Virus record (IMG/VR): IMGVR_UViG_3300049044_000033
Coordinates: 94,796-158,795 of that record
Reading direction: 5' to 3' (one strand)
DNA length: 64,000 nt
DNA from: a virus
Lineage: Duplodnaviria; Heunggongvirae; Uroviricota; Caudoviricetes
How positions within the stretch are numbered: the first letter of the stretch is position 1; every line of letters starts with the position of its first letter. The position numbers and the translations under genes are program-made. Below the pieces are notes generated by a model, which did not search any database, had not been told where the DNA came from, and saw only the letters and a program-made list of their open reading frames with translations. Below are positions 1,280 to 64,000 of the stretch, one piece after another.

Positions 1280-1635
1280 GCTTCAACAACGGGGAGGGGT
1301 GAGAAGCGACGCTTCAATTCTGCGTCATGAGCTGCCTTGGCTTGGCGTTCTGCGTTCTCGCGCTCCCAAGCTTCGTTGTCCCGACGCTCCTTCTCGTCGT
1401 AATAGTGAGACCAGCTGCGGTACTCGATACCGTCGCGTTCGCTGCGAGCCTTGAGGACAGCGGCTTCACGCTCCAGTTCCTCATTCATGGCCTCCTCATA
1501 GTTGTTCATGAAGAAGACCTGAGCCTCCGGAGTAGTGGGGCAAGCCGAACGAGTGCCATAGAGGCTCTTGGCGAGGTCGGAAATGATATCCTGGACTTCG
1601 TGGATGTTTTCCAGCGTATAAAGATACTTGGTCAT
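1252..1635 (-). CDS. Hypothetical protein
   Basis: ATG directly downstream of promoter/RBS cassette at 1636-1700. Confidence 0.75.
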   Translation of the reverse strand: MTKYLYTLENIHEVQDIISDLAKSLYGTRSACPTTPEAQVFFMNNYEEAMNEELEREAAVLKARSERDGIEYRSWSHYYDEKERRDNEAWERENAERQAKAAHDAELKRRFSPLPVVEAWEHGDTVH

Positions 1636-1693
1636 TTTCCGATCCCTCTTTGTTGCTGCCTATGTTCCAGTTTTAGCACATAGGTGGATAGCG

Positions 1694-1933
1694 TCAACCA
1701 GAATTTTGAACTTTTCCATTTGGGAAGAGTAGCTGAAGTTTAGTGCGAACCTTGCCGTGCTCATCTGAAATGCGACGATACGTTTCGCCGTTTTTGACGG
1801 AACGATTCTTCACAAATTTGATGCGAGCTATTTCCCTACGGATAGCAAGTCGTTGCCTCAGCGATTCGAGTTCATTGAAGTCATTTGTCAGCTTCAGCTG
1901 ATTGAGAAAACGCTGGGATGGCAAATGACTCAC
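1694..1933 (-). CDS. Hypothetical basic protein
   Basis: GTG start after GAGGAG; TGA stop overlaps TTGAC of the next promoter. Confidence 0.65.
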   Translation of the reverse strand: MSHLPSQRFLNQLKLTNDFNELESLRQRLAIRREIARIKFVKNRSVKNGETYRRISDEHGKVRTKLQLLFPNGKVQNSG

Positions 1934-1990
1934 TGGGTCCTCCTCGGTTATTCACCTGTCTAACATTTCGGTGAGGTTTGTCAACCAAAG

Positions 1991-2016
1991 AAAAACCCGA
2001 TCCGAAGACCGGGTTT
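1991..2016 (-). terminator. Rho-independent terminator
   Basis: AAACCCG/CGGGTTT stem followed by a U-tract on the minus strand. Confidence 0.7.
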
Positions 2017-2038
2017 CTAAGCGACCGTCGAGTCGAGA

Positions 2039-2671
2039 TTACTTGGGATTCGTCGGTACCGGAATAGCCTGCTGAAGCTGAGGTTCACCCGGCGTCTGCG
2101 AGGGATCAACGAACGGTTCGGCCGATGCGTTCATGAACTTTGTCCGATTGGGCAACCGAGCATCAGGAGCCAAGCTACCGTCGGCTAGCTTGTAACGGCC
2201 CTTGTTATTGCTACCAGGGCAAGCAAAGCCAGTGGCCGCGAAGAATGCGTCAGCGTTCACGGGATTGCGAGGGTTAGTGTCCTGACACATACGCGCAACA
2301 GCAACGCTACTCAGACCCATTGTGTGCCATGCTGCTGCGTCACTGCGACGGGTGCAGGCTTCGTCTGATCGACCAAGGTTCAGAGAGAACCCGATAGGAC
2401 CACCGGCAGCACCGCCGCCTGTACCGACGAGACAAGGATTGGTACCGCCGAAATAGCTGCCTGCGACGCTCGGCGTAGTCCAAGTGTGGCCGCTATAGTC
2501 GATGTCATTGCGCTGGGGCCCGGTCGGACCTTGCGCGACAGCAACGACATTCACTGTATTGGCTGCATCCGCGTTAGCCGTCTGCTGACCAGTTGCACCC
2601 GTAGTTGTTTGAGCTGCTACTGGCTGCGCAATGCCAACGCCAATAAGCAAAAAGATAGCGAGCCTCTTCAT
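2039..2671 (-). CDS. Secreted protein with signal peptide and conserved cysteines
   Basis: MKRLAIFLLIGVGIAQPVAA-Q signal; PCL...SLNLG..D..C.R...MG....AVARMCQD motif. Confidence 0.75.
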   Translation of the reverse strand: MKRLAIFLLIGVGIAQPVAAQTTTGATGQQTANADAANTVNVVAVAQGPTGPQRNDIDYSGHTWTTPSVAGSYFGGTNPCLVGTGGGAAGGPIGFSLNLGRSDEACTRRSDAAAWHTMGLSSVAVARMCQDTNPRNPVNADAFFAATGFACPGSNNKGRYKLADGSLAPDARLPNRTKFMNASAEPFVDPSQTPGEPQLQQAIPVPTNPK

Positions 2672-2696
2672 GAGATACCCTTTCCCGTTTTAGCTG

Positions 2697-2730
2697 AAAA
2701 ATAAAGGGGTGGATAATTCCACCCCTTTAT
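2697..2730 (-). terminator. Rho-independent terminator
   Basis: ATAAAGGGGTGGA/TCCACCCCTTTAT stem plus U-tract. Confidence 0.75.
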
Positions 2731-2738
2731 CGAGAACC

Positions 2739-3263
2739 TTAGTTCTCGAAGCCGAACGTACCAAACACGCCCTGGCCGGAGAAGTTGACGTTCGCAGCCT
2801 GAGCCTGATTTTCCGAGAACTCGAAGGAGTTTTCACGGCTGTAGTCGAACGTGAACGAGTTGGTGAACTCGCTCTGGCCGAAGTTCACGACCTGGCCAGT
2901 CAGCGAACCATTGCCCTGAACTGCGCCGTTCAGATCCATGTCGTTGCCGCTCAGGCTGTAAGCAGCATTGCCCAGGCTACCTGCGAGCGAACCCGCAATG
3001 CCAGTCATATGAAGCTGAGCAGCTGAAGCGCCGGCGCCGAGGGTCAGGTCACCCACGAAACCGCTGCCCGAAGCAGCTGACAGAGTGTTGTCGATGGAAA
3101 CGTCCAGCGTGGTCGAGTTCACGACATCGAGGCTGGTATTTGCCGAAGTGGCGAGATTGCCATTCAGGTTGCCGATACCGATGGCGCCAACGCCGGTCTG
3201 AGCCAGTGCAGGGGTTGCCATTGAGGCAGTCGCCAGGATGGCGATAAGTGCGAGCTTGCGCAT
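2739..3263 (-). CDS. Secreted Gly/Asn/Ser-rich beta-type protein
   Basis: Start corrected to MRKLALIA (AAGGAG upstream); signal peptide ending ALA-Q; host-like GC3 codon bias. Confidence 0.75.
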   Translation of the reverse strand: MRKLALIAILATASMATPALAQTGVGAIGIGNLNGNLATSANTSLDVVNSTTLDVSIDNTLSAASGSGFVGDLTLGAGASAAQLHMTGIAGSLAGSLGNAAYSLSGNDMDLNGAVQGNGSLTGQVVNFGQSEFTNSFTFDYSRENSFEFSENQAQAANVNFSGQGVFGTFGFEN

Positions 3264-3417
3264 GTTCGATCTACTCCTTGAACCGTTCACAGGTTGTTGT
3301 GAACGCCGTTAAAGTTATATTAATGTCGAAGGTCGTCAACAAGTTTCAGCAAGTTAACTATAATCTTTTGGCGTTAACTTTAAGAAACCTACGTAAACTG
3401 CGACTTCGCTGTAATGG

Positions 3418-3449
3418 AAAAAGCCTCGGGATCTTTCACCCGAGGCTTT
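3418..3449 (-). terminator. Rho-independent terminator
   Basis: AAAGCCTCGGG/CCCGAGGCTTT stem plus U-tract. Confidence 0.75.
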
Positions 3450-3470
3450 ATTTCTAACCTACGTTATAGG

Positions 3471-3902
3471 TTAAGCTGTGGCCATTTCCACATAGCTCAT
3501 ATCAACCTCAGGCTCCTCGCTGACCGGTTCCTTGTTGGGGTCGGTAAATTTGATCCAGAACTCCAAGGGGAAATTGTTTTCGTTGACCATGCGTTCGCTA
3601 ACGATAAAGCCCGGCGAGCAAGGGCACATGGAACAGCCTGCGTAGGACGAGAAGCGCAGCTTGCCCTCAAACTGCGGGTAGGTCTGCTCGATCATCTTGC
3701 GCGCTGCGTTGATCTGCTTCCGGAACGACAAGCCCTCAAAAGCCTCGTCCTCGATCCGAATGTAAATGCGAGAGGGTTTAATCCATTCGCGGTGTAAAGC
3801 GCGACGATCGTAGGCCGTAGTAGCAGTCCGTGGGGCTTGGCGGGCGCTCTGCGTGATGGTAACATTGAACGTACCGAACTTCGTTTCGCAAACCTGACAC
3901 AT
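3471..3902 (-). CDS. Hypothetical protein with AGCSMCPCSPGF motif
   Basis: Start corrected to MCQVCE after CAGGAGATCGAGC; Cys-rich motif suggests metal binding. Confidence 0.75.
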   Translation of the reverse strand: MCQVCETKFGTFNVTITQSARQAPRTATTAYDRRALHREWIKPSRIYIRIEDEAFEGLSFRKQINAARKMIEQTYPQFEGKLRFSSYAGCSMCPCSPGFIVSERMVNENNFPLEFWIKFTDPNKEPVSEEPEVDMSYVEMATA

Positions 3903-3969
3903 GCTCGATCTCCTGTGCTGCATTTCGTGTTTCCACTTTAGCAGAATAGGTGAATGCGTCAACCTCTTT

Positions 3970-5667
3970 TTAGACGCCGGCTGCTTCCAGGAGCATTTTG
4001 AGGTAATATTCACAAAAGGACTCAACAGTTTCCTGACTTCCAAAACCCAAGTAATTGGCAAGGTCTTGGAAGCCAAAGTTACAATTTTGAATCTTAATAT
4101 TAGACCCTTTGAAGAACTTGATGTTGGCTTGCCAGATCACCCGGCTAAGTTCCATCTCAACCTCAGCGGGAACCTTTGCTCTAGCGCGCAGACTCACAAA
4201 GGGCATCAAATAAGGAACCCTCATCATTCTGCCTTCGAGAATAACACTCAAGCCACCATAACTTGATCCAACAAGGAAGTCCCGCAGATCCACAACATCA
4301 AAATACTCTGTGCCTGCATATTCACCAAAGTCGGAAAGAATTACCTGATCGGTAATCTTCACTTCAGGTGGTAGGTTTTCAGTAATGGCGCGAATAGTAT
4401 CGCCCGTTACAGTGTCGTCCTCGACTAGCACATATTCGCCCGCAGGGACCCGAGAGAGCTGTGTCTCGAGGTCAGGGTGACCAGCACGTTGCGCGCGGAG
4501 CAAGGGCTTAAATTGAGCGTTGTAGGGTTCGAAGTAACGCGTCATATCAATATGATAATGACCTTCGAAGAACGGATCCAAAGAGATTGTCTTCCGCTGT
4601 CCGATGACCTCGCGAGCTTTGATTCGCTGATCGCTGACATTCATCAAGCAGACTTTGCTCTTTAGACCGGCGTTTTTAAACAACTGGGCAAAGCCAAGTC
4701 GAACCGCAGATTGGAATTGAACCCGACGCCTCGTTAGCTCTTCCTTGTCAAGCTCAATTGCCCATCCTGCGATCGCAAAGTTCTCCTCATTGCGAATCAA
4801 GTAGGGCAGCTCAGTTGTGTTGGGCTTTTGCCAGTTCTCGAGATAATCCCGAACCCTGGGATCCAAATGATCGTGATGACCTTCGCGAGCCATCTTACTC
4901 GACAGTGAGGTTCGTTCGATCATTATCGAATTATTGGGAAGAGCCTTGCCGAAACCTTCATTGTCTGAACCGTAGACGTAGAAAATTTCTACCCATTCAT
5001 ATTTTAAACAACTATAGAGGTAGTCGAAGATTGCCGTGAAGTTGATTTCAGAGGGCATGTAGCGAGCAGCCCACGGATCGCATTCCAGCCAGTTACTGTC
5101 TTGGACGGCTAGCTCAACCATTGCACAACGATGTTCCGCAGGGATAGCAGCAGTGCCGCCATACTTTTGTCCCACATAACTATCATGCCCAGGGCAGAAA
5201 AACCCACCCACTACGTCGTAGCCCTTGTCTTCCATGATCCTCTTGGCCTCTTCCATCATTTCGATGTGACCATTGTGGATCGGAGCCATACCACCTGTCG
5301 TGAAGAGTACCGCCCTTGGCTTAGAAGAGCCCGCTTTGATGTTTTTGTGGACTTTGCCGAAAGGTGTCACCGTCGTCCGAAGATTGTTAGACTTATATTC
5401 GGAGGGAAGCTTAGGTAGACCATCATCGAAGAACCCTGCATCAAAGAGGGCTTTGGTCGACCTTGTCTCTTTGTAGACTGCGTTGTAGTGACGATCACTC
5501 AATGCCTTCCAAGCATAACGCTGGTCCTTAGACATTCCAGTTTTCCGAAGATCATATCCAAGGAAGATGGCTTCCGTCTGTGAAACATCCTCTCCTACCC
5601 CGAGGATCTCATAGAGGTCACCCTCGGGGCGGTGCATCGTTATGCCGCAGGCGTAAGTGTCTGTCAT
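3970..5667 (-). CDS. Nicotinamide/nicotinate-nucleotide adenylyltransferase (NMNAT/NadD-like) fused to a type I phosphoribosyltransferase, with a degenerate J-like N-terminus
   Basis: TTGGMAPIHNGH (HxGH), P.HDSYV..KY, WLECDPW, YVYGSD, SS..AR; C-terminal PRPP-binding motif VLVEDDTVTGDT. Confidence 0.8.
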   Translation of the reverse strand: MTDTYACGITMHRPEGDLYEILGVGEDVSQTEAIFLGYDLRKTGMSKDQRYAWKALSDRHYNAVYKETRSTKALFDAGFFDDGLPKLPSEYKSNNLRTTVTPFGKVHKNIKAGSSKPRAVLFTTGGMAPIHNGHIEMMEEAKRIMEDKGYDVVGGFFCPGHDSYVGQKYGGTAAIPAEHRCAMVELAVQDSNWLECDPWAARYMPSEINFTAIFDYLYSCLKYEWVEIFYVYGSDNEGFGKALPNNSIMIERTSLSSKMAREGHHDHLDPRVRDYLENWQKPNTTELPYLIRNEENFAIAGWAIELDKEELTRRRVQFQSAVRLGFAQLFKNAGLKSKVCLMNVSDQRIKAREVIGQRKTISLDPFFEGHYHIDMTRYFEPYNAQFKPLLRAQRAGHPDLETQLSRVPAGEYVLVEDDTVTGDTIRAITENLPPEVKITDQVILSDFGEYAGTEYFDVVDLRDFLVGSSYGGLSVILEGRMMRVPYLMPFVSLRARAKVPAEVEMELSRVIWQANIKFFKGSNIKIQNCNFGFQDLANYLGFGSQETVESFCEYYLKMLLEAAGV

Positions 5668-5697
5668 ATCACCACTTTACAGGAAGTTGGACGACAG

Positions 5698-5868
5698 TCA
5701 AGCCTTGGCTTTGGCTTCTTCAGACTTAAAGCCCGCTGCCCAGTTCTTACCGGCGAGGCTTTCCCCATAGGGATTGGATTCGAGATCACGACCGTTAAGG
5801 AAGGCCGCACGACCTTCAGCAGTCGAGGCGCAAAAATTCTGCGATACTTCCCAGATGGGCTTGCTCAT
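5698..5868 (-). CDS. Small Rmf/CrpP-fold-like protein (56 aa, not in ORF track)
   Basis: Own translation MSKPIWEVSQNFCASTAEGRAAFLNGRDLESNPYGESLAGKNWAAGFKSEEAKAKA; G..A...G....NPY......W..GF motif; cassette RBS upstream. Confidence 0.65.
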   Translation of the reverse strand: MSKPIWEVSQNFCASTAEGRAAFLNGRDLESNPYGESLAGKNWAAGFKSEEAKAKA

Positions 5869-5922
5869 AACTGATCTCCTGTTGTTTCCTATATCACCAC
5901 TTTAAAGGAAATAGGTGAGCAG

Positions 5923-6099
5923 TCAAGCGTTTTCTTCGCATTCTTTCTGACACTTGCACTCGCAGGCTTCCGAGATTGTCGGGGCGAGCAGCAAAGCCAC
6001 AAAGAGGAACCAACCCCAACCTGGGCCGTTAATAATGGCAAGAATTGCCGCTGCTATGAGGCAGAAGCTGACTGGCAAGAAGGCAAGGAACTTGGTCAT
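5923..6099 (-). CDS. Small membrane protein (58 aa, not in ORF track)
   Basis: MTKFLAFLPVSFCLIAAAILAIINGPGWGWFLFVALLLAP...; two hydrophobic segments; leaderless start within a promoter hairpin. Confidence 0.7.
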   Translation of the reverse strand: MTKFLAFLPVSFCLIAAAILAIINGPGWGWFLFVALLLAPTISEACECKCQKECEENA

Positions 6100-6129
6100 A
6101 AAGCCACTTTATAGCCCTATGACCAAGTT
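6089..6129 (-). promoter_or_regulatory. Hairpin promoter; 12-bp perfect inverted repeat pairing the spacer with the start codon
   Basis: AACTTGGTCATA-N17-TATGACCAAGTT; -10 GCTATAAA in the loop. Confidence 0.8.
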
Positions 6130-6137
6130 GTCATTAT

Positions 6138-6704
6138 TCAGCCGACGATGAGCTTGGTATAGAGTTGCGTGAACTTTTCGAAGGACGGAACTTCCTTCGT
6201 ATCGAAATTGACGGGGCGCCCTTCGCTCGGAGTCAGGATTGCCCGAACGTAATGGACCATAGAGTCAATGTCGCCCTTATCGTTCAGGACGAATGCCTGT
6301 TGGAAAAATTCCTCAACAGTTGCGCCACTTGCTTTGCCGTCATTCTGAGCAGCCTCGTCCTTGATCTTTGCGACCAATGCCTCGATGTCGGCGTATTTGA
6401 TGCGGCGCTTTGCTTGACGGAAACCATAGGCCGCGCCGAGCGTGATGACGTTGCTGGCGACCAGCTTGATACCTTTGGACGAGAAGAGATCGTCTGTTGC
6501 TTGCTCAACTGCCGAGAGTTTCAGCTGGTCAATATTGTCGCAGTTCACACTGGCGTAGAAGTTATCAGACTCTTGAGCAAGCTCTTCGCCGACGTTGATG
6601 CCGGCTTGCAGGATTTCCACGACCGTTTCGCCAAATGGGCGACCTTGGATCACACCTTCGATGAGAGTCTGCCGGGCATTATCAGTCTCGCGTCCAATAG
6701 TCAT
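6138..6704 (-). CDS. Hypothetical protein
   Basis: 188 aa ORF with cassette RBS. Confidence 0.8.
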   Translation of the reverse strand: MTIGRETDNARQTLIEGVIQGRPFGETVVEILQAGINVGEELAQESDNFYASVNCDNIDQLKLSAVEQATDDLFSSKGIKLVASNVITLGAAYGFRQAKRRIKYADIEALVAKIKDEAAQNDGKASGATVEEFFQQAFVLNDKGDIDSMVHYVRAILTPSEGRPVNFDTKEVPSFEKFTQLYTKLIVG

Positions 6705-6763
6705 TTTCGATCTCCTTGTTGCCTATGTGTCAGTTCTAACACATAGGCAGCTTGCGTCAACCA
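6705..6763 (-). promoter_or_regulatory. Hairpin promoter/RBS cassette
   Basis: TTGACG -35; TGCCTATGTGT/ACACATAGGCA 11-bp IR at 6720-6749; AAGGAGATCGAAAATG. Confidence 0.8.
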
Positions 6764-6765
6764 GT

Positions 6766-7020
6766 TTAATCCTGGAGGGCTTTCATCATCAGCTCATAGA
6801 GTCGAGCCTGGGGCGTATCAGGGTAAGCAAGATTCACTGCCATCCCGCAACGGCCAGTGGTGTGGCACATTGCTGACCAGAGAGCCGTGTGGAGCATTAT
6901 CTCGCCTTCTTTGCGCTCTTCTTCGGAAGGGTTAAAGGCCTTCCCACCACGCTGAAGTTCAGCATAGAGGTTGGTCAGTTCTTCACGCTCTTCGCGGGTC
7001 AGGCTCAAAGTTTCCTCCAT
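6766..7020 (-). CDS. Hypothetical protein
   Basis: Operon-like packing with 7005..7208. Confidence 0.65.
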   Translation of the reverse strand: MEETLSLTREEREELTNLYAELQRGGKAFNPSEEERKEGEIMLHTALWSAMCHTTGRCGMAVNLAYPDTPQARLYELMMKALQD

Positions 7021-7208
7021 ATGTTGAGACCCTTGCGAGTCAGCTCAAGATGAGCACCGGGTTTGTCTCCACTTATTGTCCAGTGGATCAGACCAGCAGC
7101 AACTAGTCGATCAATTCGATAAGCAAAGAAGGGCTTCCAGCTTTTAACGTGGAAGCCCTTGCGGGGCTTCACACGCCGGAACAATTCTATGTCCTTGCTG
7201 CTGAGCAT
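7005..7208 (-). CDS. Hypothetical, possible winged-helix protein
   Basis: IDRLVAAGLI...LELTRKG pattern; TAATG coupling to upstream gene. Confidence 0.6.
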   Translation of the reverse strand: MLSSKDIELFRRVKPRKGFHVKSWKPFFAYRIDRLVAAGLIHWTISGDKPGAHLELTRKGLNIWRKL

Positions 7209-7447
7209 TAAAGCACCTTAGTGCCATCGGGATGAGTCCAAAGCGACCGAACCTTGCCACGAACGCGGGCAACTTCGTCGGCCATATCCTGGTCGCCCAG
7301 CATGGAAAACAGGTCGTGATCCTGCTCACCGTCCAAGACATTGCAGAGTGCGTTGATCAGATCCTGAACCGACACATCAATTTCGTTGCCGTTCGAATCA
7401 ACAAGAACCGCCTTCGTGGGGTTTGAAATATTGTAAATGATGGACAT
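7208..7447 (-). CDS. Hypothetical protein
   Basis: Cassette RBS upstream. Confidence 0.75.
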   Translation of the reverse strand: MSIIYNISNPTKAVLVDSNGNEIDVSVQDLINALCNVLDGEQDHDLFSMLGDQDMADEVARVRGKVRSLWTHPDGTKVL

Positions 7448-7524
7448 GTTTCGATCTCCTGTTTGCTTTGTCGGTAATCTGGTTATAAAGCCTACATTAG
7501 AGGAGTCAACCAGTTTTCCAGAAA

Positions 7525-7713
7525 TTAGGCCTGCGACAATTCCATGCAGATTTCAGTGAGACCATCGATGCGACGCTTACAAGTGTCATATGCTGCCTGG
7601 TTGCAGAGCACTGCGCTGGTTTTCTGAAGTTTCCGCTCAATACGCAGCATCGAGCGCGCCATTTCGAGATCAGCAGCTTTTTGTTCCGCCTTCATCTGTT
7701 CGGTAAAACTCAT
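7525..7713 (-). CDS. Hypothetical protein
   Basis: Cassette RBS upstream. Confidence 0.75.
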   Translation of the reverse strand: MSFTEQMKAEQKAADLEMARSMLRIERKLQKTSAVLCNQAAYDTCKRRIDGLTEICMELSQA

Positions 7714-7778
7714 TTTCGATCTCCTGTTTGCTTCTGTTATCCAGACTTTAGCAGAACTGGTGAATGAATCAACCAGTT

Positions 7779-8168
7779 TTAGACTTCTCGCCAGATAAAT
7801 TCCCTGGGGTTCCAGTATGCTGACTCAAACTTGCCCGGATTTGTCACAAGACCATAGAACTCAAGGGCTTTTTCTTCGGCCTTTTCAAAGTCCGGTTCGT
7901 TGGTCCGGAAGTCAGGCAGGTCGTTAACTGTGAATCGATATTCTGGTGGATTGCTAAAGGTGCCATCGTCAGCAGTAACTGAGCCGATCGTGATCCTCTG
8001 GCCTTTCTCGTTCCTTGCATCAAGGAGGAAATCGGTGCTTCCGCTTTCGATTTTATCTGCAACCATGCGGAGCATCTTTGCGATGTAGGCTTTACTCGAA
8101 GGTGCGATGCTGGATGAAATATGCTCATCCAGCAGGGAAAATTCGACCATAACTTTCTCGCGCATCAT
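7779..8168 (-). CDS. Hypothetical protein
   Basis: ATGA overlap with upstream gene. Confidence 0.7.
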   Translation of the reverse strand: MMREKVMVEFSLLDEHISSSIAPSSKAYIAKMLRMVADKIESGSTDFLLDARNEKGQRITIGSVTADDGTFSNPPEYRFTVNDLPDFRTNEPDFEKAEEKALEFYGLVTNPGKFESAYWNPREFIWREV

Positions 8169-8608
8169 CCCAACACCACAATCATTCCAAAAACCTTCCG
8201 ACCCTCAGGGATCTCAGGAACGACCATTGCGGTCCACCAGTCCTCTGTGTCGCTGAAGCAATACTTCTTCGACGCGTAGGCATTCATATCAACTGCGTCG
8301 GGCTTTTCCAGCTTGTGAGTGATGATCTTCTCCAACAGCCCATCTACGTAGTTGAGCTCGCCATCGGGGATTAGATCCAGCTTCTCCAAATCGAGCAGCG
8401 CATGATAATCGCGAAGGACGGTATCTTCCTCGTAATCATCTTCGCCCTCGAGGACCCACTTCTCGCTAATATCTAGCACGGGGAAATAGCCAAAGACTTC
8501 AAGGATCTTCTCCTTGATCGCGAGACCGAGATTCTCTTCAACATCCTCAAACATCGGCTTGCGCCCGATAACTGTAATTCCGTGCTTGCTCACGTAGCTG
8601 TTAAACAT
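8165..8608 (-). CDS. Hypothetical acidic protein
   Basis: Start corrected to MFNSYV after GAGGAGATCGAG. Confidence 0.75.
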   Translation of the reverse strand: MFNSYVSKHGITVIGRKPMFEDVEENLGLAIKEKILEVFGYFPVLDISEKWVLEGEDDYEEDTVLRDYHALLDLEKLDLIPDGELNYVDGLLEKIITHKLEKPDAVDMNAYASKKYCFSDTEDWWTAMVVPEIPEGRKVFGMIVVLG

Positions 8609-8667
8609 CTCGATCTCCTCATTTCTTGCTTCCAGTTTAGCAGAAACTGGAGATAAGTCAACCCCTC

Positions 8668-9420: not shown

Positions 9421-9433
9421 TTTACTGCCTCCC

Positions 9434-55562: not shown

Positions 55563-55566
55563 AACC

Positions 55567-56384: not shown

Positions 56385-56443
56385 GTGGCTCTCCTTTTAG
56401 GTAATCTCTTTACCCTATTTAGCCACATAGGAGTTTATGCAAG

Positions 56444-56878: not shown

Positions 56879-56935
56879 GTTCGATCTCCTGTTTCTGTTA
56901 TTTAGGTGATAGCAGAAACAGGAGACTTGTCAACC
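56879..56935 (-). promoter_or_regulatory. Hairpin promoter/RBS cassette
   Basis: TTGACA; TCTCCTGTTTCTG/CAGAAACAGGAGA 13-bp IR at 56885-56925. Confidence 0.85.
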
Positions 56936-56939
56936 GCTT

Positions 56940-57584
56940 TTAGAGCAGCGACCTAAAGGTTAGGCTAATCCGTGCCTTGCTCTCAAAGCCAGCTTTGGGA
57001 ATGCGATGCTGATATGTAGACTGAAAGCCAGCTGGCATCAAACACAGGCTACCATGTTCTAAGGGCTGGTCGATGATTTCCCCATAAGTAGGCTTGCCGT
57101 CGACTTCGCCTAACTTCTCACGAAACTGAATGCTGCGAGGCTTATCAACACCGGGTCCACCATACAGCGTCACAACCGCGATGGGTTTTGAGTGATCAAT
57201 TCCTGGATCATCATCTTCGTGCCAGCCCAACCAATCGCGCGCATCTTCGTAACCATTGAGGAAACAACCCTCGAAGAACGTAGAGACGCGAGGATCCTGG
57301 TTCAGTGATTCACTAACTGTTAATATCTCGCGAGTGATCGGCTGGGCGTCGTAGGTCCGAGTACCAGCACCGCGGCCGTAGGTATAGGACCGGTCATACA
57401 CGTTCGTCCAGTATTCCCGACGGGGAGCATCAGGTCGACGTTCCCAGTTGAGTTCGTTCCACAACGTGACAAACATTTCGTCGGCCGTCAGGGCAGGGGT
57501 TCCAAGGTTCCTATCTGAGAGGTGGCGCTTGGATTCCACAAACCTGTTGTGGTTCACAAAGTCGGGAATATAGACAATCGACAT
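56940..57584 (-). CDS. alkB: AlkB-family 2OG-Fe(II) dioxygenase (ALKBH2/3-like)
   Basis: CFLNGYED..D.LGWHEDD, IAVVTL, L.HGSL.LM.AGFQ..YQHRIPK, RISLTFR. Confidence 0.9.
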   Translation of the reverse strand: MSIVYIPDFVNHNRFVESKRHLSDRNLGTPALTADEMFVTLWNELNWERRPDAPRREYWTNVYDRSYTYGRGAGTRTYDAQPITREILTVSESLNQDPRVSTFFEGCFLNGYEDARDWLGWHEDDDPGIDHSKPIAVVTLYGGPGVDKPRSIQFREKLGEVDGKPTYGEIIDQPLEHGSLCLMPAGFQSTYQHRIPKAGFESKARISLTFRSLL

Positions 57585-57632
57585 TTTGAATCCTTTCACG
57601 CCTTTGTAACAGAAAAGGATCCTATGTCAACC

Positions 57633-58394
57633 TCAGAGCATCTTAAGCTTTTCCATCATCAGCACTTGCTTGATGTCGTCGCTGAGGAGAAGGACTTGGT
57701 CGTCCATAACGCCAGGAATCTTAGCTTCTTCCTTGGCGCCAATATGCTTGATCTTAACCGTTCGAGCATCACTAATGTGGGTGATCTTACCCACAATCAA
57801 GTGGCCATATCTCTGACCAACGATGACTAGATCCCCGGCCGTTACATCTCGACCGTAACGATCCTTGATAGAGATGCTTGGCTTGACCTTAGAAGGCTTA
57901 CCCTTAACGAGAACTTCGCCACCAGTATATCCGATGAGCAATACGGGACGAGCTGTCTTCATAGACGAAGAACTGGGGTTCCATTCCAAAACAACTTTGC
58001 CGTCAACTGAAGCTTCGCACATTCCATGACCGCCCCAGCGACTAGAGCTCAGTAGGATATTGCCATAAATGTGTGCCGAACCGCCCTTATTGTTCCAGCC
58101 TTTGTGCGTAACAATTTTGACCTTGGAGGGAGGGTTATTATCGTCATCACTGTGGATAATATTGCCGGGCTTCTTTGTGATTCGAGCAATTGTGCCCGCT
58201 TTAGCGCCTGCTGTTAGCTTGACATAGATTGGTCCAGTTTCGAAAAGATCGCGAATCTCTTGGAGGAGTTCTCGAGCTTTCTCAGCTTTCTCCATCATGG
58301 ATTCATAACTACCTGAGGTATCCTCATAGTAGAATGAAGTGTCATTATACTGATATCCGCTAGGGAACAGTTCGGTCCAAAGAATCTCTTTCAT
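57633..58394 (-). CDS. Hypothetical protein; paralog of 20314..21063
   Basis: KLTAGAKAGTI; DRYGRDVTAGDLVIV. Confidence 0.75.
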   Translation of the reverse strand: MKEILWTELFPSGYQYNDTSFYYEDTSGSYESMMEKAEKARELLQEIRDLFETGPIYVKLTAGAKAGTIARITKKPGNIIHSDDDNNPPSKVKIVTHKGWNNKGGSAHIYGNILLSSSRWGGHGMCEASVDGKVVLEWNPSSSSMKTARPVLLIGYTGGEVLVKGKPSKVKPSISIKDRYGRDVTAGDLVIVGQRYGHLIVGKITHISDARTVKIKHIGAKEEAKIPGVMDDQVLLLSDDIKQVLMMEKLKML

Positions 58395-58437
58395 ACCTCA
58401 TTGCTAAGAGGGTAGAAAGAGAGTTGTCATTATTCTT

Positions 58438-58743
58438 TTAGGATAATAGAGCTTGGTCCGCTAGCTCTTTCCAAACTGGCTTGAGCTCTTCGATGATTGC
58501 GTCGATCTGATATTGCTGAACCTCACTGGGAACGTTGATGCTCATAGCAGCCTTCAACTCTTCAGCCATGATCTCAAGCATGTAGAAAGGCCAGTTCTTC
58601 TCAATCCATGTTGGAACCACATGAGTGACCATGCCTACCACGATAGCGTTGACGGCTTCCTCAGGTGTGAGAAACTTCTGAGCTTTTTGCTCAGGGGTGA
58701 GGGGTTTTTCCGCAAGCGCGGGAAATTGTATAACCTTTGCCAT
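58438..58743 (-). CDS. Hypothetical protein
   Basis: MAKVIQFP N-terminus; CTAAATA just upstream. Confidence 0.7.
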   Translation of the reverse strand: MAKVIQFPALAEKPLTPEQKAQKFLTPEEAVNAIVVGMVTHVVPTWIEKNWPFYMLEIMAEELKAAMSINVPSEVQQYQIDAIIEELKPVWKELADQALLS

Positions 58744-58786
58744 CCAATATTTAGTGGCAAAGTGCGCAGTTAAGCGTTTTTAGGGA

Positions 58787-58863
58787 TGGTGGACACAGTG
58801 GGATTCGAACCCACGACGCAGGGTGTTAGAGACCCCCGCTCTTGACCGCTGAGCTATGCGTCC
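58787..58863 (-). tRNA. Amber suppressor tRNA (anticodon CUA)
   Basis: GGACGCA-TA-GCTC-AGCGGTCAA-GAGC-G-GGGGT-CTCTAAC-ACCCT-GCGTC-GTGGG-TTCGAAT-CCCAC-TGTGTCC-A-CCA; anticodon at 58827-58829; own TTGACA/TATAAAT promoter. Confidence 0.92.
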
Positions 58864-58905
58864 ATGTTCTCATTTATAAGGCAGAGAACGTACCTTGTCA
58901 ACACC

Positions 58906-59448
58906 TTATCGGTTGTATCCGCCGCGGTTAGGGAAGGCAAGACCTGGGATCATGATGATTGTCTTATCATACCAATCGTTTACTGTCTTGAGAAGCTCGC
59001 CCTCTGCCCCTATGACTTCGTCCAAGTATTCAGTCATAAGCCTGTTAGGGCACATTGCCGGACTGAGTAGCTTGACCTTCTGCAGGGCATCTGCGGGGCT
59101 CATACCATGTAGAACCAAGATAGCCATCGCAATAGCAGTGGATCGGCTCTTACCAGCAGAGCAGTGAACGAGAACCTTTGACTCATCAGTGAGTTCCCAG
59201 CTCTTCACTTCGTCAATGATCTCTTGCATGACCTTCAGGGAGGGAGGCGTCAGGTCAGCATATTCCTCCGGATCATCTGCCTCAACATCATGGAAATTGT
59301 AGATCCCATGATTGTTATGCTGGCGATCAATATAAGTACCGGGCCAATTAGGGCCAGCATCGTTGATCACGCTGATGATGTGAGTAGGCCAATCCTGAGC
59401 GATCAGGGTCTTGGCTTTGTGGATTCCCATTACTTTGATTTCAAACAT
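58906..59448 (-). CDS. Protein-tyrosine/dual-specificity phosphatase
   Basis: LVHCSAGKSRS (CX5R), FHDV, PN. Confidence 0.9.
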   Translation of the reverse strand: MFEIKVMGIHKAKTLIAQDWPTHIISVINDAGPNWPGTYIDRQHNNHGIYNFHDVEADDPEEYADLTPPSLKVMQEIIDEVKSWELTDESKVLVHCSAGKSRSTAIAMAILVLHGMSPADALQKVKLLSPAMCPNRLMTEYLDEVIGAEGELLKTVNDWYDKTIIMIPGLAFPNRGGYNR

Positions 59449-59455
59449 ACGATCT

Positions 59456-59480
59456 ATAGGGTGAGTTGCCCCACCCTATT
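59456..59480 (-). terminator. Stem-loop
   Basis: ATAGGGTG/CACCCTAT. Confidence 0.5.
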
Positions 59481-59483
59481 TCC

Positions 59484-59858
59484 TTAACGGTAGTTAGCCG
59501 GACCCATGGCGCAAACCATGTTGGCCTTCACTAGAGCCTGAAAAGTTACGTCCCAGTCCTCATTGGTCCTCGTCCAAGCATAATCGAGGATTTGCTTAGG
59601 GATAACATACACGCCGGTGCCTGGAGCCGCGATAGCGTAGAACAGATCATTGTCAGTCCAAGAAACTTCACAGCCACTGATGGTCACATTCATGACCTTG
59701 TTGTCAGCTGTTGAGATTGGCACAATGCCGTTTACCATGTGACCAACGCGGATGAGGGTCATCTTCACATGGGAGGGTGGAGTAACGGGAGCCGCAAGTG
59801 CAGGGGTAGCAACAAGGGCAGTGAGCGCAGCTAGTGCGCCGATGAAAAACTTCTTCAT
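59484..59858 (-). CDS. Secreted protein
   Basis: Start at MKKFFIG after GAGGAGG; signal ending ALA-A. Confidence 0.75.
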   Translation of the reverse strand: MKKFFIGALAALTALVATPALAAPVTPPSHVKMTLIRVGHMVNGIVPISTADNKVMNVTISGCEVSWTDNDLFYAIAAPGTGVYVIPKQILDYAWTRTNEDWDVTFQALVKANMVCAMGPANYR

Positions 59859-59934
59859 GGATACCTCCTCGACGCCTAGAGGAATATCAAAGCGTCCATG
59901 TATCCACAATACAGGAATTACAACCCAGGAATCA

Positions 59935-60315
59935 TTATTCTTGTTCGATTAGTTCGCCATCTTCTCCGAGTTTGAAAATGCGAACGTTAGCACCAGGTTG
60001 GGCCATGATCCCCTGGACTTCATTGAAGAAGTTTTGGAGGAACTCTTCCGAAAGCTTATGAGAATTATCTTCCCAATAAGTTCCAGGTGCCGGCGTTACG
60101 GGACGAACCCATCCCGTTGAGTCAGTTACATGCTTCCTCAAAGCAGTGCGCCAATCTGACTGTTTTGTCTGAAGACTGTTATAGACGTCTTCCATCGACA
60201 TCTCGGTATGCTCATTGGCCAATTCAGCATCATGAGCACGACGGGCTTCTTCATATTCAGGGAGGAGCAGGACGTCGCCGATGATTTCGAATACGGGAAG
60301 ATTTCTGCGAACCAT
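59935..60315 (-). CDS. Hypothetical protein
   Basis: Start at MVRRNL after AGGAGG. Confidence 0.7.
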   Translation of the reverse strand: MVRRNLPVFEIIGDVLLLPEYEEARRAHDAELANEHTEMSMEDVYNSLQTKQSDWRTALRKHVTDSTGWVRPVTPAPGTYWEDNSHKLSEEFLQNFFNEVQGIMAQPGANVRIFKLGEDGELIEQE

Positions 60316-60387
60316 ATTTGACCTCCTGCTGTTGTTACCTATAAGTAACAGAACGAGAGATCGAGTCAACCACATTTCGGTGAACCT

Positions 60388-60801
60388 ATGATCCTCTATA
60401 TTATGTCGGGCCTTCCTGGTTCCGGTAAGTCAACCACAGCTAATGAGATAGTTGAGAATACAGGTGCTATCCTCGTGAGTAGGGATGAACTTCGTGTGAG
60501 CTATCGTAACTTACCTGATGAAAGCCATCTCTCCCAAGCCCTAGGAAATAATGTAAAGTTCTTCCTTGAGCGTGGTTATGACGTTGTGGTCGATTCGTGG
60601 AATCTTGAGGTATGGGACGAGAAACTTTGGACTGAGATGGCTCGTAGATTTGGTGCTACATTGTCTTGGAAGCACATTGATACTGATGTTGAGACTTGTG
60701 TGGCTAGAGACGCAAAACGCCCTCAACCGATTGGGGCTGAGAGCGTTAGAAATGCGGCAGAACGTTACAGCGAACGTCTAAAGGTATTGGAGGAGGGCTA
60801 G
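60388..60801 (+). CDS. P-loop kinase, T4 polynucleotide-kinase-like (AAA_33) (TAG stop)
   Basis: GLPGSGKST, SRDELR, VVVDS.N, C..R...R. Confidence 0.85.
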   Translation: MILYIMSGLPGSGKSTTANEIVENTGAILVSRDELRVSYRNLPDESHLSQALGNNVKFFLERGYDVVVDSWNLEVWDEKLWTEMARRFGATLSWKHIDTDVETCVARDAKRPQPIGAESVRNAAERYSERLKVLEEG

Positions 60802-60879
60802 GTACTCGAAACCTAAGGGGCTACAAACCCCTCCATCTGTTTTCAAGGCAGCGCCGGCGCCCTGGCCGGTCAACCCTCC
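60788..60879 (-). tRNA. tRNA-Ser(UGA), atypical (long D stem, U73)
   Basis: GGAGGGT/GCCCTCC-T-CCA acceptor, loop CTTGAAA, long variable arm GGGG..CCCC, T arm TAGGT-TTCGAGT-ACCTA. Confidence 0.8.
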
Positions 60880-60912
60880 ATGTAGTCTATTTAGCAAGTT
60901 GTAGACTAGAAA

Positions 60913-61098
60913 TCAACTTGCTTGTCGACGTTCTTTTCGAATCTCGCGACTATTAATCACAGCCACGATACCCTTGTTGAGTGTCTCTGTGCAATCGCGA
61001 TCAATACGCATAAGGCGCTTGAGACGACGATTATCCATTGGCACGCCGTCATAGACTGCGGCATACATTTCCGAAAGAAGCTTATCTAGCAATGCCAA
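60913..61098 (-). CDS. Hypothetical protein
   Basis: Stop overlaps -35 of the tRNA promoter. Confidence 0.55.
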   Translation of the reverse strand: MALLDKLLSEMYAAVYDGVPMDNRRLKRLMRIDRDCTETLNKGIVAVINSREIRKERRQAS

Positions 61099-61110
61099 TG
61101 GAAGTCTCGC

Positions 61111-61194
61111 TTAGAAGATGAAAGCACCAGCGACGAAAGAAATCACAGCAGTGATAACGGGATGCTCGTGAACAAAACGCTGAACCTGATCCAT
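61111..61194 (-). CDS. 27-aa tail-anchor-like peptide (ElaB/YqjD C-terminus-like; not in ORF track)
   Basis: MDQVQRFVHEHPVITAVISFVAGAFIF; AAGGAG RBS. Confidence 0.55.
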   Translation of the reverse strand: MDQVQRFVHEHPVITAVISFVAGAFIF

Positions 61195-61247
61195 AAAAAC
61201 TCCTTTGTTGCCTGTCTGCTATTAGGTTAGTCTGACCTACTTGTCAA

Positions 61248-61754
61248 CTACCTTTGTTCCTTCATTACCTCACAGGCATGAAGATAGATTGCGAGACGTT
61301 GTGGATCTAGCTCTGCTTCTGCTAATTCGCGCGAAAAGAAGAAGGGCTGAAGACATTCGTCATTGACCTCATATGGGTCAATCCAATCCACAAAGCCTGC
61401 GTAGAACTGCTGGTAGGAAACCGGATGAGGATATTTCCAATCCTCTGGGACCTCACCCTCACTGGTCATTCTCAGATATCCAATGGGAACGACCATTGTC
61501 ACGTGACAACCCGTTTCCTCGAGACATTCCCGCTTGGCTGCTTGCTCAAGCGTCTCACCGACTTCTACGTGCCCTCCGGGGACCTCTAAGCCCCTCCTTG
61601 AGTTGTTGGCAAACACAACCCGCTTACCTAAGACAAAGGGCATGAGAAACGCTGTAGAGGTCAACTCCAAGGGAGCAGGGCTACTATCAGCGATGAACTC
61701 TACCTGATTAGGGAGAGGGAGATACTTAACGTCTGTAATGGTATGAAGAATCAT
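61248..61754 (-). CDS. NUDIX hydrolase (TAG stop)
   Basis: PGGHVEVGETLEQAAKRECLEETG Nudix box. Confidence 0.92.
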   Translation of the reverse strand: MILHTITDVKYLPLPNQVEFIADSSPAPLELTSTAFLMPFVLGKRVVFANNSRRGLEVPGGHVEVGETLEQAAKRECLEETGCHVTMVVPIGYLRMTSEGEVPEDWKYPHPVSYQQFYAGFVDWIDPYEVNDECLQPFFFSRELAEAELDPQRLAIYLHACEVMKEQR

Positions 61755-61759
61755 ACCTT

Positions 61760-62119
61760 TTACTTAAGGTTAATCACACTCTTGTCAAGCTGGTATTCAA
61801 TTGTGGTGATTCGCTCGTTGAGCTGACGCTGAACGGTTAGCAATCGACGTTGGTTATCTCGAACCTCACGGAGTATTTCTTTAATCTCCTGAGTGTCGCG
61901 GTTCTGGGTGTTCTGTAGGAGGAAGACCATTAGGAAGGTAGCAATCGTTGTACCAGTGTTAATGATCAACTGCCATGTGGCCGAGAAGCCCGCAAAGGGT
62001 CCACACGCTGCCCAGATGAAAACCAAACTCAACGCTATGATGAACGCCAAAGGTTTACCAAGACTATCTGCGATCCACTCAGAGAATAGGTCAAAACGGT
62101 CTCGTAGAATCTTGGTCAT
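61760..62119 (-). CDS. Low-affinity iron permease (Fet4-like) family protein
   Basis: W...GP..GFS.TWQLIINTGTTI.TFLMVFLLQNTQNRD. Confidence 0.88.
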   Translation of the reverse strand: MTKILRDRFDLFSEWIADSLGKPLAFIIALSLVFIWAACGPFAGFSATWQLIINTGTTIATFLMVFLLQNTQNRDTQEIKEILREVRDNQRRLLTVQRQLNERITTIEYQLDKSVINLK

Positions 62120-62200
62120 AGCGTGTCACTCCCGCGACTAATTTGGTGTCATAGGACTCCCTAGTGTTGTTTGGAATTGTGAGCAAACTCACGTGATTAT

Positions 62201-62530
62201 TTAGTTAGCGGACACAAAAGCGTATGGTTTACCCTCTTGATACCAATCCGCCGTCCATATCCGGTTGTAGTTAGAGTCATTCACAAAGGCAGGAATGAAC
62301 CGAGTGGTCATTGGGCTATCTTGAGTCATAGCAAAAGCTAGAAATTTAGCCATATATTCAGGCGATGGGAAGTAGCCTAGCCGGGCTTCAAACTGTTTGA
62401 TCTCATCCAGATCATAGTCCTTGTAGGTCAGAATACCTCGGACGCCAGGGCGACAAATCCTAATATCCGGCGGGGACTCTACGAATATCCTATAGCCATT
62501 GAAGGCCAGCTTATTATAGAGTGAGTTCAC
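62201..62530 (-). CDS. Hypothetical protein; tandem paralog of 62527..62814
   Basis: LYNKL.F.G...L..FPS.E..A. Confidence 0.7.
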   Translation of the reverse strand: MNSLYNKLAFNGYRIFVESPPDIRICRPGVRGILTYKDYDLDEIKQFEARLGYFPSPEYMAKFLAFAMTQDSPMTTRFIPAFVNDSNYNRIWTADWYQEGKPYAFVSAN

Positions 62531-62814
62531 GGATAGTTATTCATAGATTCATAGAGGTCGTTCATTTCGTCCATGTTGTCAAACAGGACATTACCAGCGT
62601 TGTCGGTCACCTTCCCCACACAGTCGCCGTAGACATTGAAGAGATCTTCGGCAAAATCTTCAGCAGAGGGAAACTCCGCAAGGGTGAATTTACGAGCTAA
62701 AACCGATTCAACTGTAGGGAAGTTTTGATGTTCTATAATACGACTTTCATGGTTATAGAACGTTACACAAAAGCCGGAGAACTGAAGCTTATTATAGAGG
62801 GGATCAGTCGTCAT
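62527..62814 (-). CDS. Hypothetical protein; tandem paralog of 62201..62530
   Basis: LYNKLQFSG...LAEFPSAEDFA. Confidence 0.7.
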   Translation of the reverse strand: MTTDPLYNKLQFSGFCVTFYNHESRIIEHQNFPTVESVLARKFTLAEFPSAEDFAEDLFNVYGDCVGKVTDNAGNVLFDNMDEMNDLYESMNNYP

Positions 62815-63172
62815 CGCCGAGGATCTTCCGCTCCATCAAGAGCTCTATGGTCGCTACCTCATTGTCGGGAGCCATCATACATTCGTGGTTGCCAGCAGCA
62901 TAACCCCACTGGTGCTCCCGATGATCGATCCGAACCTTGCCAGTCTCAATTGCTTCCTGGATCACGCGAGCATCACTGACTCGGCTTTCCTTACCCGTCG
63001 ACACGCTCTTGCCATAGGTCGTTAGTTCGCCCCGGTAGTAGGTCAGGAAGCCTGCACTGACGAGTCGATGGGCGCCACCAACATCATGAGCGAGAGTCGT
63101 GTGTTCCACGCCGGTCATCTTGTTGATCAGCGCAAACTCGCCTTCATCGTTCATCACATACTTGGTGGTCAT
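62804..63172 (-). CDS. Hypothetical protein
   Basis: H......VSAGF......YG.S.S......D pattern. Confidence 0.7.
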   Translation of the reverse strand: MTTKYVMNDEGEFALINKMTGVEHTTLAHDVGGAHRLVSAGFLTYYRGELTTYGKSVSTGKESRVSDARVIQEAIETGKVRIDHREHQWGYAAGNHECMMAPDNEVATIELLMERKILGDDD

Positions 63173-63190
63173 CTTTGTCCCTCTTGATAG

Positions 63191-63215
63191 AAAAGGGGGA
63201 GGGTTTCCCCTCCCC
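63191..63215 (-). terminator. Rho-independent terminator
   Basis: GGGGAGGG/CCCTCCCC stem plus U-tract. Confidence 0.7.
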
Positions 63216-63225
63216 GTATTAAAAC

Positions 63226-63918
63226 TTAGGCTGCGTAGTAGAAGCTGCCCTGGTAGTCCTGGCCGCCGGTCTTGATCCGGAGGATGCTGGCCAGTCCGAT
63301 GCTGCGGACGATGATCTGATTCTCGACCTTCAGACCGCCCTGGACCTTCTCGCTCTGCTTGGCTTCGGGCTTCTCATAGCCCTGGATGTTTGCTTCGTCG
63401 ATGGGCTTGCCGTCGAGGAAGAATTCCGTCTTACCAGCGCGCAGGAAGATCGTATCGAGGTAATAGTTGGGCTCTGCTTCGCCGGCCTTCACATGCTCGA
63501 TAAACGGGCTGTTGGGAACGCGCTCGCCCCACTTGCGCGGCTTGACCCGGAAGCGCTCTTCAGCTTCTTCGCGACGCTCTGCCTCACCGGCTTCCAGTGC
63601 TGCTTCGATCTTCGCGGCCAGTTCGTCGATTTCCTCAGCCGACAGCACATCGAGCAGTAGTTCCTGCGCCTCGTCGGCCTTCGCAGTTGCGTCTGCGAGG
63701 ATTTCGCCGCAGATTGCGTTGCGGACCATATTCTGGTACGTATTGGTATTCTTGTTCTGGCAGATCAGCACAGTCGATCCTGACACGCGCTTGGTCACGC
63801 GATCCTTCATCGGGTTGGCCTTGCCGCCCTTCAGCGGGACGATGGTTTCGATGTCGAGACCGATAAAGCTTACACCGCGCAGCTTGGAAAGCACTTCAAC
63901 TACATTATGCATCTGCAT
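63226..63918 (-). CDS. Phage hypothetical protein
   Basis: Start at MQMHNV after cassette RBS; L.GGK.NP...RVTK...Y.NMV...PRKWGER...PFIEH; strong codon bias. Confidence 0.8.
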   Translation of the reverse strand: MQMHNVVEVLSKLRGVSFIGLDIETIVPLKGGKANPMKDRVTKRVSGSTVLICQNKNTNTYQNMVRNAICGEILADATAKADEAQELLLDVLSAEEIDELAAKIEAALEAGEAERREEAEERFRVKPRKWGERVPNSPFIEHVKAGEAEPNYYLDTIFLRAGKTEFFLDGKPIDEANIQGYEKPEAKQSEKVQGGLKVENQIIVRSIGLASILRIKTGGQDYQGSFYYAA

Positions 63919-64000
63919 TCTCGATCTCCTTGTTTGCGTTTCGTGTATCCACATTAGCAGATAATAGGCATGCGTCAACCGCTTTTTGGAAAATAGGTGC

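Follow-up and report, generated by a model that had tools for sequence, protein, structure and literature searches.

The stretch of DNA analysed here (the window, 64,000 nucleotides) comes from a virus record of 462,455 bp that has terminal repeats (IMGVR_UViG_3300049044_000033, positions 94796-158795) and carries a long array of repeated sigma70-type promoters, a minority of which have a -35/-10 spacer complementary to sequence between the -10 box and the start of the next gene. The genome encodes a T4-like core set (gp43-type polymerase, helicase, gp46/47, portal, terminase, sheath and gp23-type capsid, with a weak gp55-like match), the names being given from T4 coordinates and lengths, and contains 62 tRNA genes. 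The source is a T4-superfamily jumbo phage related to Sinorhizobium phage Phosso, and since its capsid protein is 86.6% identical to the Phosso counterpart, an alphaproteobacterial host is likely.

A promoter model (position weight matrix, PWM) identified 83 cassettes, mostly on the minus strand at 60-120 kb of the genome. The consensus consists of an A-tract, GG, TTGAC, mostly 16 nt between the hexamers, an extended -10 TG, TAnnnT and a GG discriminator, followed by a conserved A at the expected +1, an A-rich leader, a AGGAGATC-type Shine-Dalgarno sequence (SD) and the start codon; start sites were predicted from promoter geometry. At promoters 6099 and 21063 (minus strand) the predicted +1 is the A of the start codon, giving a leaderless appearance, and each lies inside a strong hairpin. 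The G+C content of the cassettes is 0.41 vs 0.475 for the genome, and A reaches a frequency of 0.73-0.76 at three positions upstream of the -35, a modest AT-richness. The GG is consistent with a sigma70 discriminator, and the A-tract with an UP element. Taken together, the elements are those of a strong sigma70 promoter (PMC2988021, on T4 early promoter architecture). The gp55 late promoter motif TATAAATA does not occur in the cassette region, where promoters are of the TTGAC/TAnnnT type. A 16-nt spacing is found at 101/138 promoters here, 60/114 in Phosso and 83/137 in Atu_ph07, vs 17 nt in T4, T5 and phiM12, and could reflect an alphaproteobacterial holoenzyme or a phage factor.

All twelve inverted repeats that a first-pass annotation of the window had reported are present where it placed them, all on minus-strand promoters, and several are longer as coding-strand RNA than it had seen. 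The repeats were measured against chimeras, in which the spacer of one cassette was joined to the downstream part of another and the longest perfect stem was scored. In the cassette set the longest stem was 6.34 bp for own vs 5.34 bp for chimeric pairs (z=8.0), with 25% of cassettes vs 6% of chimeras reaching at least 8 bp and 12% vs 1.5% reaching at least 10 bp. Similar values were obtained for the TTGAC gene promoters of the window (6.10 vs 5.14 bp, n=41, z=5.2) and for promoters genome-wide (6.07 vs 5.00 bp, n=138, z=12.1), and the 61 promoters outside the cassette family share the excess (+1.00, z=8.8). No excess appears for direct, mirror or complement-only matches or for pairing of the spacer with coding sequence, and as controls, intergenic DNA that has no promoter gives +0.24 to +0.49 and coding DNA +0.16. 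Because own stems beat the chimeras and the control matches are null, the repeats exceed what the CACCT/CAGG consensus alone would give. The repeats are real, promoter-centred and copy-specific, yet a minority feature: the annotation had ascribed them to many of ~50 cassettes, and stems of at least 8 bp occur at 8/41 of the TTGAC gene promoters, or at about 11 of ~50 promoters when those at 6089, 53621 and 14121 are added.

A two-dimensional pairing map of 342 cassettes from seven genomes (the source, its relatives G001-G005 and Phosso, hereafter the clade) has three enriched zones. One holds terminator-like hairpins that lie upstream of the -35, another the hairpins that surround the -35 (about 2-fold), and the third and strongest pairs the spacer with positions from the -10 to the SD (2.5-3.5-fold). 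The excess across the -35 is smaller (+0.27 vs +1.07) and has no G-U bias. Pairs with both arms within the promoter's own transcript show no excess in the map and are depleted in this genome (z=-3.7). Repeat centres lie at promoter positions 20-32. Folded as RNA, many stems are lengthened by bulges and G-U pairs and have terminal loops of 3-8 nt, and a fold of -15 kcal/mol or better is reached by 39% of cassettes vs 16% of chimeras; these folds often place the -10 box in the stem and not, as had been proposed, in the loop. Covariation on aligned cassettes gave only noise at fixed register (top z 4.1 among thousands of pairs), as registers differ from copy to copy. Pairing with the SD or AUG holds at 6089, 16888, 20260, 38173, 53621 and 56885, and four stems (6720, 8631, 14647 and 21065) stop short of it. 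The -35 beside the arm, described throughout as TTGAC, is ATGACA at 6089 and TTGATC at 53621.

Three independent tests (orientation, position and wobble) point to the read-through RNA, not the DNA, as the carrier of the signal. The excess is +1.28±0.11 bp at promoters behind a co-directional gene (n=378) vs -0.05±0.16 bp at divergent promoters (n=40), and stems of at least 8 bp occur at 86/378 (23%) vs 1/40, respectively (Fisher p=0.0009). Matching the promoters by score leaves this gap in place (paired t=5.5), as does restriction to the major strand, and in Atu_ph07 the counts are 21/103 co-directional vs 0/21 divergent. The excess also depends on how far before the -35 the upstream stop codon lies, being highest (+1.69) at 1-15 nt and lowest (+0.38) at 40-100 nt, and half of the 40-100-nt gaps hold a canonical terminator. 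None of 49 promoters behind a canonical terminator has a stem of at least 10 bp vs 41 of 329 others (p=0.005), while strong upstream hairpins counted regardless of U-tract do not predict weaker stems. The common factor is a hairpin just past the upstream stop codon, where a terminator would lie.

Wobble pairs were counted by strand, as the first-pass annotation had suggested, in the interior of 9-bp stems with one mismatch. Pooled over the clade, G-U pairs on the coding strand number 21 vs 4.7 expected, and A-C mismatches 7 vs 5.7 (p=0.002); outside the clade (Atu_ph07, T4, RB49 and phiM12) the counts are 12 vs 1.7 and 2 vs 1.6, respectively. Strand mutation bias is small, since four-fold sites are 0.50-0.53 keto. 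Flanking mismatches in this genome alone are symmetric (15 G-U vs 19 A-C). Among single hairpins, the four G-U pairs at 6089 and the UUCG loop at 21065 are RNA-type features.

To open the ribosome footprint, the predicted cost in kcal/mol is 9.4 when the RNA is read-through, 5.2 when it starts at the promoter itself and 7.9 for chimeras (t=6.6). Among co-directional promoters 31% have an added cost of at least 6 kcal/mol, and among chimeras 14% (p=2e-9). In these folding models, hiding of the ribosome-binding site (RBS) is enriched but partial, and the RNA-level proposal of the annotation (RBS hiding on read-through RNA, as at T4 e, soc and I-TevI) applies to a subset of promoters. A systematic translational insulator at every gene, which it had also considered, finds no support: most cassettes have no strong stem, about half of the stems miss the RBS, tRNA promoters show the excess too, and orthologs do not keep stem strength (r 0.03-0.09). 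RBS hiding is not the sole job of the stems, because the enrichment of inner stems ending before the SD is no lower (+0.73 vs +0.44) and the excess is also seen in the clade's pooled tRNA promoters (n=25, z=3.8), although the two tRNA-promoter repeats of the window do not stand out singly (Table 1). Inner hairpins acting as decoys that hold the RBS open were considered and rejected, as fully open cases make up 21% of real cassettes vs 29% of chimeras.

Table 1. Promoter cassettes and hairpins in the window. Paired energies are RBS opening costs on read-through vs own RNA unless strands are named; start sites are predicted.
Feature	Positions	Strand	Details
~50 repeated sigma70-type promoter cassettes	62..63978	-	PWM and lists; densest at 1.7-21 kb
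19-bp continuous RNA hairpin, 4 G-U pairs	6089..6129	-	z -5.7; coding strand -25.3, other strand -16.3 kcal/mol; predicted leaderless promoter, -35 6134-6129, -10 6111-6106, +1 6099; 3' arm spans AUG and first codons of open reading frame (ORF) 5923-6099
13-bp inner hairpin	6720..6749	-	z -5.4; -35 6760-6755, -10 6738-6733, +1 6726; stem stops short of SD of ORF 6138-6704, RBS stays open on read-through RNA (2.6 vs 3.4 kcal/mol)
8-bp inner repeat around -10	8631..8651	-	promoter 8661; weaker alternative fold reaches SD
8-9-bp inner repeat	14647..14667	-	promoter 14677; z -1.3, singly not significant
SD-covering hairpin	16888..16928	-	z -4.6; promoter 16935, -10 16913-16908, +1 16901; before ORF 16644-16880; 13.2 vs 4.3 kcal/mol
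SD-covering irregular 16-bp hairpin	20260..20298	-	promoter 20308; before ORF 20066-20251; 21.7 vs 9.1 kcal/mol
12-bp hairpin, UUCG loop	21065..21092	-	z -4.0; predicted leaderless, -35 21099, -10 21075-21070, +1 21063; stem ends 2 nt short of AUG
SD-overlapping repeat, one coding-strand A-C mismatch	38173..38213	-	promoter 38222; before ORF 37655-38164
Long irregular SD-covering hairpin	53621..53667	-	z -5.2; -35 TTGATC 53673-53668; before ORF 53127-53615
13-bp perfect SD-covering stem (16 bp extended)	56885..56925	-	z -5.1; promoter 56933, +1 56899; before ORF 56444-56878; 20.1 vs 4.8 kcal/mol
G-U-rich SD-covering hairpin	57588..57622	-	promoter 57630; coding strand -19.7, other strand -9.0; overlooked by the first-pass annotation
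6-bp repeat at promoter of tRNA(CUA) 58787-58863	58866..58889	-	z 0.3, chance-level singly
7-bp repeat at promoter of tRNA-Ser 60788-60879	60883..60908	-	z -1.9, weak singly
14-bp hairpin, -35 box in loop (second geometry)	10955..10987	-	10-14 bp with -35 in or beside loop likewise at 9182-9211, 12083-12118, 21212-21254, 43193-43224 (-)
Canonical terminator-like hairpin and U-tract (third geometry)	1991..2018	-	directly upstream of promoter 1984; further hairpins of this geometry at 38238-38268 and 11655-11682

The excess of own over chimeric stems within a genome is found in six of the seven clade genomes (G001 z=5.7, G002 9.3, G003 6.0, G004 5.6 and Phosso 4.1, besides the source), the exception being G005, where it is not significant (z=1.2). 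Under a single promoter rule applied to all genomes, it extends to T4 (+1.02, z=5.9), RB49 (+1.06, z=6.6), Atu_ph07 (+0.58, z=6.3) and phiM12 (+0.59, z=3.1), and no clear excess is seen in the small sets from T5 (+0.11, n=30), phiCbK (+0.29, n=18) and KVP40 (n=8). Early promoter candidates of T4 (NC_000866) at 8217, 53942, 62796, 65412 and 73938 (minus strand) carry hairpins of 13-18 pairs, 4/5 of which reach the SD region, and at several T4 early promoters the coding strand gives by far the more stable SD-covering hairpin. At a few loci an SD stem persists while its sequence changes, for example 56885, whose G001 ortholog has a 12-bp SD stem of other sequence and register.

We read the array as composite promoter/3'-hairpin cassettes of the promoter-early stem-loop (PeSL) kind that act on read-through RNA, some of them hiding the RBS as at T4 gene e, and give this reading a probability of about 0.7. 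Of the promoters in this dense array, roughly one in four to one in three also encode an RNA hairpin that can arise only on read-through RNA and probably ends or mutes the upstream RNA. In the early array, each promoter, presumably served by host sigma70, would sit a few bases past the previous gene's stop codon and for that reason leave no room for a separate terminator. The -35/-10 spacer would be the freest sequence that is present in the upstream RNA and absent from the promoter's own RNA; it would therefore evolve as the 5' arm of the hairpin, with the discriminator, leader, SD or first codons as the 3' arm. If it forms in vivo, the hairpin on read-through RNA would mark the 3' end of the upstream message through a pause, U-less or Rho-assisted termination, or a barrier to exonuclease. 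At about a third of promoters it would also hide the next RBS, so that the gene would be fed mainly by its own promoter and untranslated read-through would be open to polarity. The likely benefit would be that expression does not pile up along ~80 tandem strong promoters.

Several points weigh against this reading. Most promoters have no strong stem: about 22-25% reach at least 8 bp, and about half of those stems reach the SD or AUG. A U-tract follows the stem at 3/68 on the coding strand and 1/68 on the other, so the stems are not canonical intrinsic (L-shaped) terminators, in which the U-tract comes directly after the stem, and termination, RBS hiding and processing are each candidates for the selected effect. 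The divergent promoters are few, lower-scoring and possibly constrained by the opposing promoter, and genes were called automatically. Of the several stem lengths at which wobble was tested, 9 bp gave a significant result, 8 bp a borderline one and 7 bp a non-significant one; in this genome alone the bias is weak (2 vs 2 at 9 bp in the cassette set, 6 vs 2 in a wider set), and the hairpins at 38173 and 56885 fold better on the non-coding strand. Stem strength is uncorrelated across 146 ortholog pairs (r=0.03 for energy, p=0.32; r=0.09 for length, p=0.10), and related genomes are not independent samples.

The hairpins could instead be processing signals at which host RNase III or RNase E cuts polycistronic early RNA into gene-sized pieces, possibly releasing the RBS, an explanation that we regard as unlikely. 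Comparable RNase processing is known for T7 early RNA. Cleavage also needs read-through RNA and so fits the orientation results, it would account for the tRNA-promoter hairpins, and some stems are long and irregular, with 19-22 pairs (genome position 176980 as well as 6089 and 53621). Many stems, however, measure only 8-13 bp, and at least 14 spanning pairs occur at 32% of co-directional promoters vs 15% of chimeras. No RNase III gene was found in the phage genome, so a host enzyme would be needed, and the exclusion of stems behind terminators fits processing no better than it fits action at the 3' end of the upstream message.

A neutral origin is, in our judgement, quite improbable. Here T4-type replication would perfect quasi-palindromes by template switching, possibly aided by transcription, and promoter hairpins would survive because the promoter's own RNA does not contain the 5' arm. 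Template switching is documented for T4 and proteobacteria (PMC5941160). A gp43-type polymerase is present in this phage, and perfect inverted repeats exceed expectation genome-wide, coding DNA included (8-9-bp arms with 3-7-nt loops, 82 vs 26 expected, with a crude coding mask). The varying registers, the lack of conserved strength among orthologs, and an excess that follows the T4 superfamily and is absent in T5 would also suit such an origin. It does not, however, predict the absence of repeats at divergent promoters on the same strand, the dependence on stop-codon distance or on terminators, or the keeping of G-U over A-C inside stems, and the much smaller excess across the -35, with no G-U bias, is not what it would lead one to expect. 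Template switching may be a source of new stems that selection then keeps.

Very unlikely is the DNA-level branch of the first-pass annotation, in which cruciforms or single-strand hairpins are read by RNA polymerase or a phage factor as in phage N4. The repeats are centred near the melted region, many stems are perfect Watson-Crick helices, and tRNA promoters share them. In N4 the phage's own virion RNA polymerase recognises a template-strand hairpin whose stem is short and fixed, whose loop has 3 nt and which lies at a set distance from +1, whatever the upstream genes. The inverted repeat at the promoter is the likeness; here, stem length, loop and register are free, full sigma70 elements are present, and the signal is tied to upstream transcription. 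The DNA branch is disfavoured because divergent promoters have no repeats, although the orientation of the upstream gene should not matter to it, and because wobble is strand-biased. Degenerate operators for a dimeric repressor or activator, suggested by the CC..GG symmetry of the consensus around the extended -10, are scarcely credible, since arm sequence, spacing and even arm orientation vary between copies, no covariation occurs at fixed register, and the GG and A-tract have ordinary promoter readings (above; PMC2988021).

The closest known class is the PeSL cassettes of RB49/phi1, PST/T4 and nt-1/KVP40 (Arbiol 2010, PMC2839356; Comeau 2014, PMC4122927), which the first-pass annotation did not name, having cited T4 e, soc and I-TevI and N4 as parallels; nor had it seen the excess in T4 and RB49. 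In a PeSL, a sigma70-like promoter with AT-rich DNA upstream of it is combined with an SD and a stable, often polyG/polyC stem-loop, which may lie upstream of the -35 and -10 boxes, between or across them, or just before the start site; PeSL stem-loops overlapping the -10 are described, and one PeSL stem-loop acts as a strong terminator (PMC2839356). Genes are shuffled, and mini-circles formed, by recombination between PeSL cassettes. The cassettes here share the repeated sigma70-like promoter between small ORFans in a variable (hyperplastic) region, the AT-rich stretch upstream of the -35 (modest here), the SD and start codon at the 3' end, and a stem-loop placed before the -35, over it or over the -10, corresponding to the three enriched zones; the effect in RB49 is of the same size (+1.06 bp, z=6.6). 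They differ in that a stable stem is part of each PeSL whereas 25% of cassettes here have at least 8 bp, in copy-specific arms with no polyG/polyC stem consensus, in an SD/AUG-pairing subtype that falls outside the five published PeSL positions, and in an alphaproteobacterial-type promoter with 16-nt spacing.

Transcript-specific occlusion of the RBS is known in T4 at e, soc, 49 and I-TevI, and also at mobE and segB (PMC3014915). By analogy, the SD-covering subtype would work in the same way, with the SD or AUG in a helix, the 5' arm upstream of the internal promoter's start and only the short RNA open, as folding predicts for a subset here. It does not belong to that group, since its promoters are not late and the structure is not kept per gene: the internal promoter in T4 is a late gp55 promoter (TATAAATA) that serves to time a few genes, and close relatives of T4 have similar predicted leaders, whereas here dozens of genes are concerned, the internal and upstream promoters are alike of sigma70 type, and the state is gained and lost from one relative to another. 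Promoter/stem-loop elements at the T-even IP locus (Repoila 1994, via PMC2839356) are early promoters whose stem-loops vary in size, are weaker and AT-rich and contain no polyG/polyC, and T4 early promoters show the present excess (+1.02 bp, z=5.9). As summarised in the later paper, those elements were described for two small loci, and that account does not mention RBS masking or read-through dependence.

The cassettes are thus a wider use of known T4-family devices (PeSL and gene-e-type RBS hiding), not a new DNA hairpin promoter or mode of promoter recognition. No prior description of the dependence on read-through, of the bias towards G-U or of the occurrence at T4's own early promoters was found in the literature searched, in which older T4 papers were only partly covered; likewise no published description of inverted repeats at T4 early promoters was found, and an older one may exist. 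The reading joins two separately described devices and would explain how phages with dozens of strong tandem promoters avoid cumulative over-expression when there is no room for terminators. Read-through dependence and G-U bias together form a sequence-only test that also flags T4's own early promoters, and the idea is therefore testable at once in cultured phages (T4, RB49 and Phosso). It also suggests compact promoter parts that are indifferent to upstream transcription. A broader and doubtful extension is that, across the T4 superfamily including T4, spacers form a systematic anti-RBS code, genes with hairpins are translated almost only from their own promoters, and Rho polarity on muted read-through replaces terminators, giving a promoter-by-promoter control of dosage in tandem early arrays that is undescribed so far.

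Proteins encoded downstream of cassettes had no PHROG match in ten of ten cases, a related-locus search with ORF 56444-56878 gave no matches, and Rfam matches consisted of one tRNA. Gene gain and loss are frequent in the cassette region against relatives; by crude gene calls, 22/55 cassette-led genes and 32/77 other genes are absent from G001. The early genes on the minus strand include a Class I lysyl-tRNA synthetase (29271-30848), an FtsK alpha-plus-ATPase protein (15369-16583), an NAD synthase (18827-19831) and a cytidylyltransferase-like fusion (3970-5667). Three tRNAs with a CUA (amber) anticodon, labelled Pyl by ARAGORN, lie at window 58787-58863 (minus strand) and at genome positions 185829-185902 and 394833-394908, and a CUA tRNA lies behind a promoter likewise in G001, G003 and Phosso.

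Further inverted repeats and promoter pairs were noted outside the main set. Just past the window end, at genome positions 165026-165316, are two long-loop inverted repeats about 290 bp apart, each preceded by TTGGTT/CTGGTT and followed by an identical 13-nt word. In Phosso (L001:5161-5200) a 10-bp repeat surrounds a TATAAATA-containing promoter, resembling the late-promoter-in-hairpin layout of T4. At 44645-44700 an imperfect inverted repeat between divergent ORFs (-17.2 kcal/mol) has an inward-facing TTGAC at each end, that is, two face-to-face promoter candidates within one hairpin. Overlapping face-to-face candidates with a shared -10 region also occur at window 60318 (plus strand)/60369 (minus strand) and at genome positions 320972 (plus strand)/321020 (minus strand).

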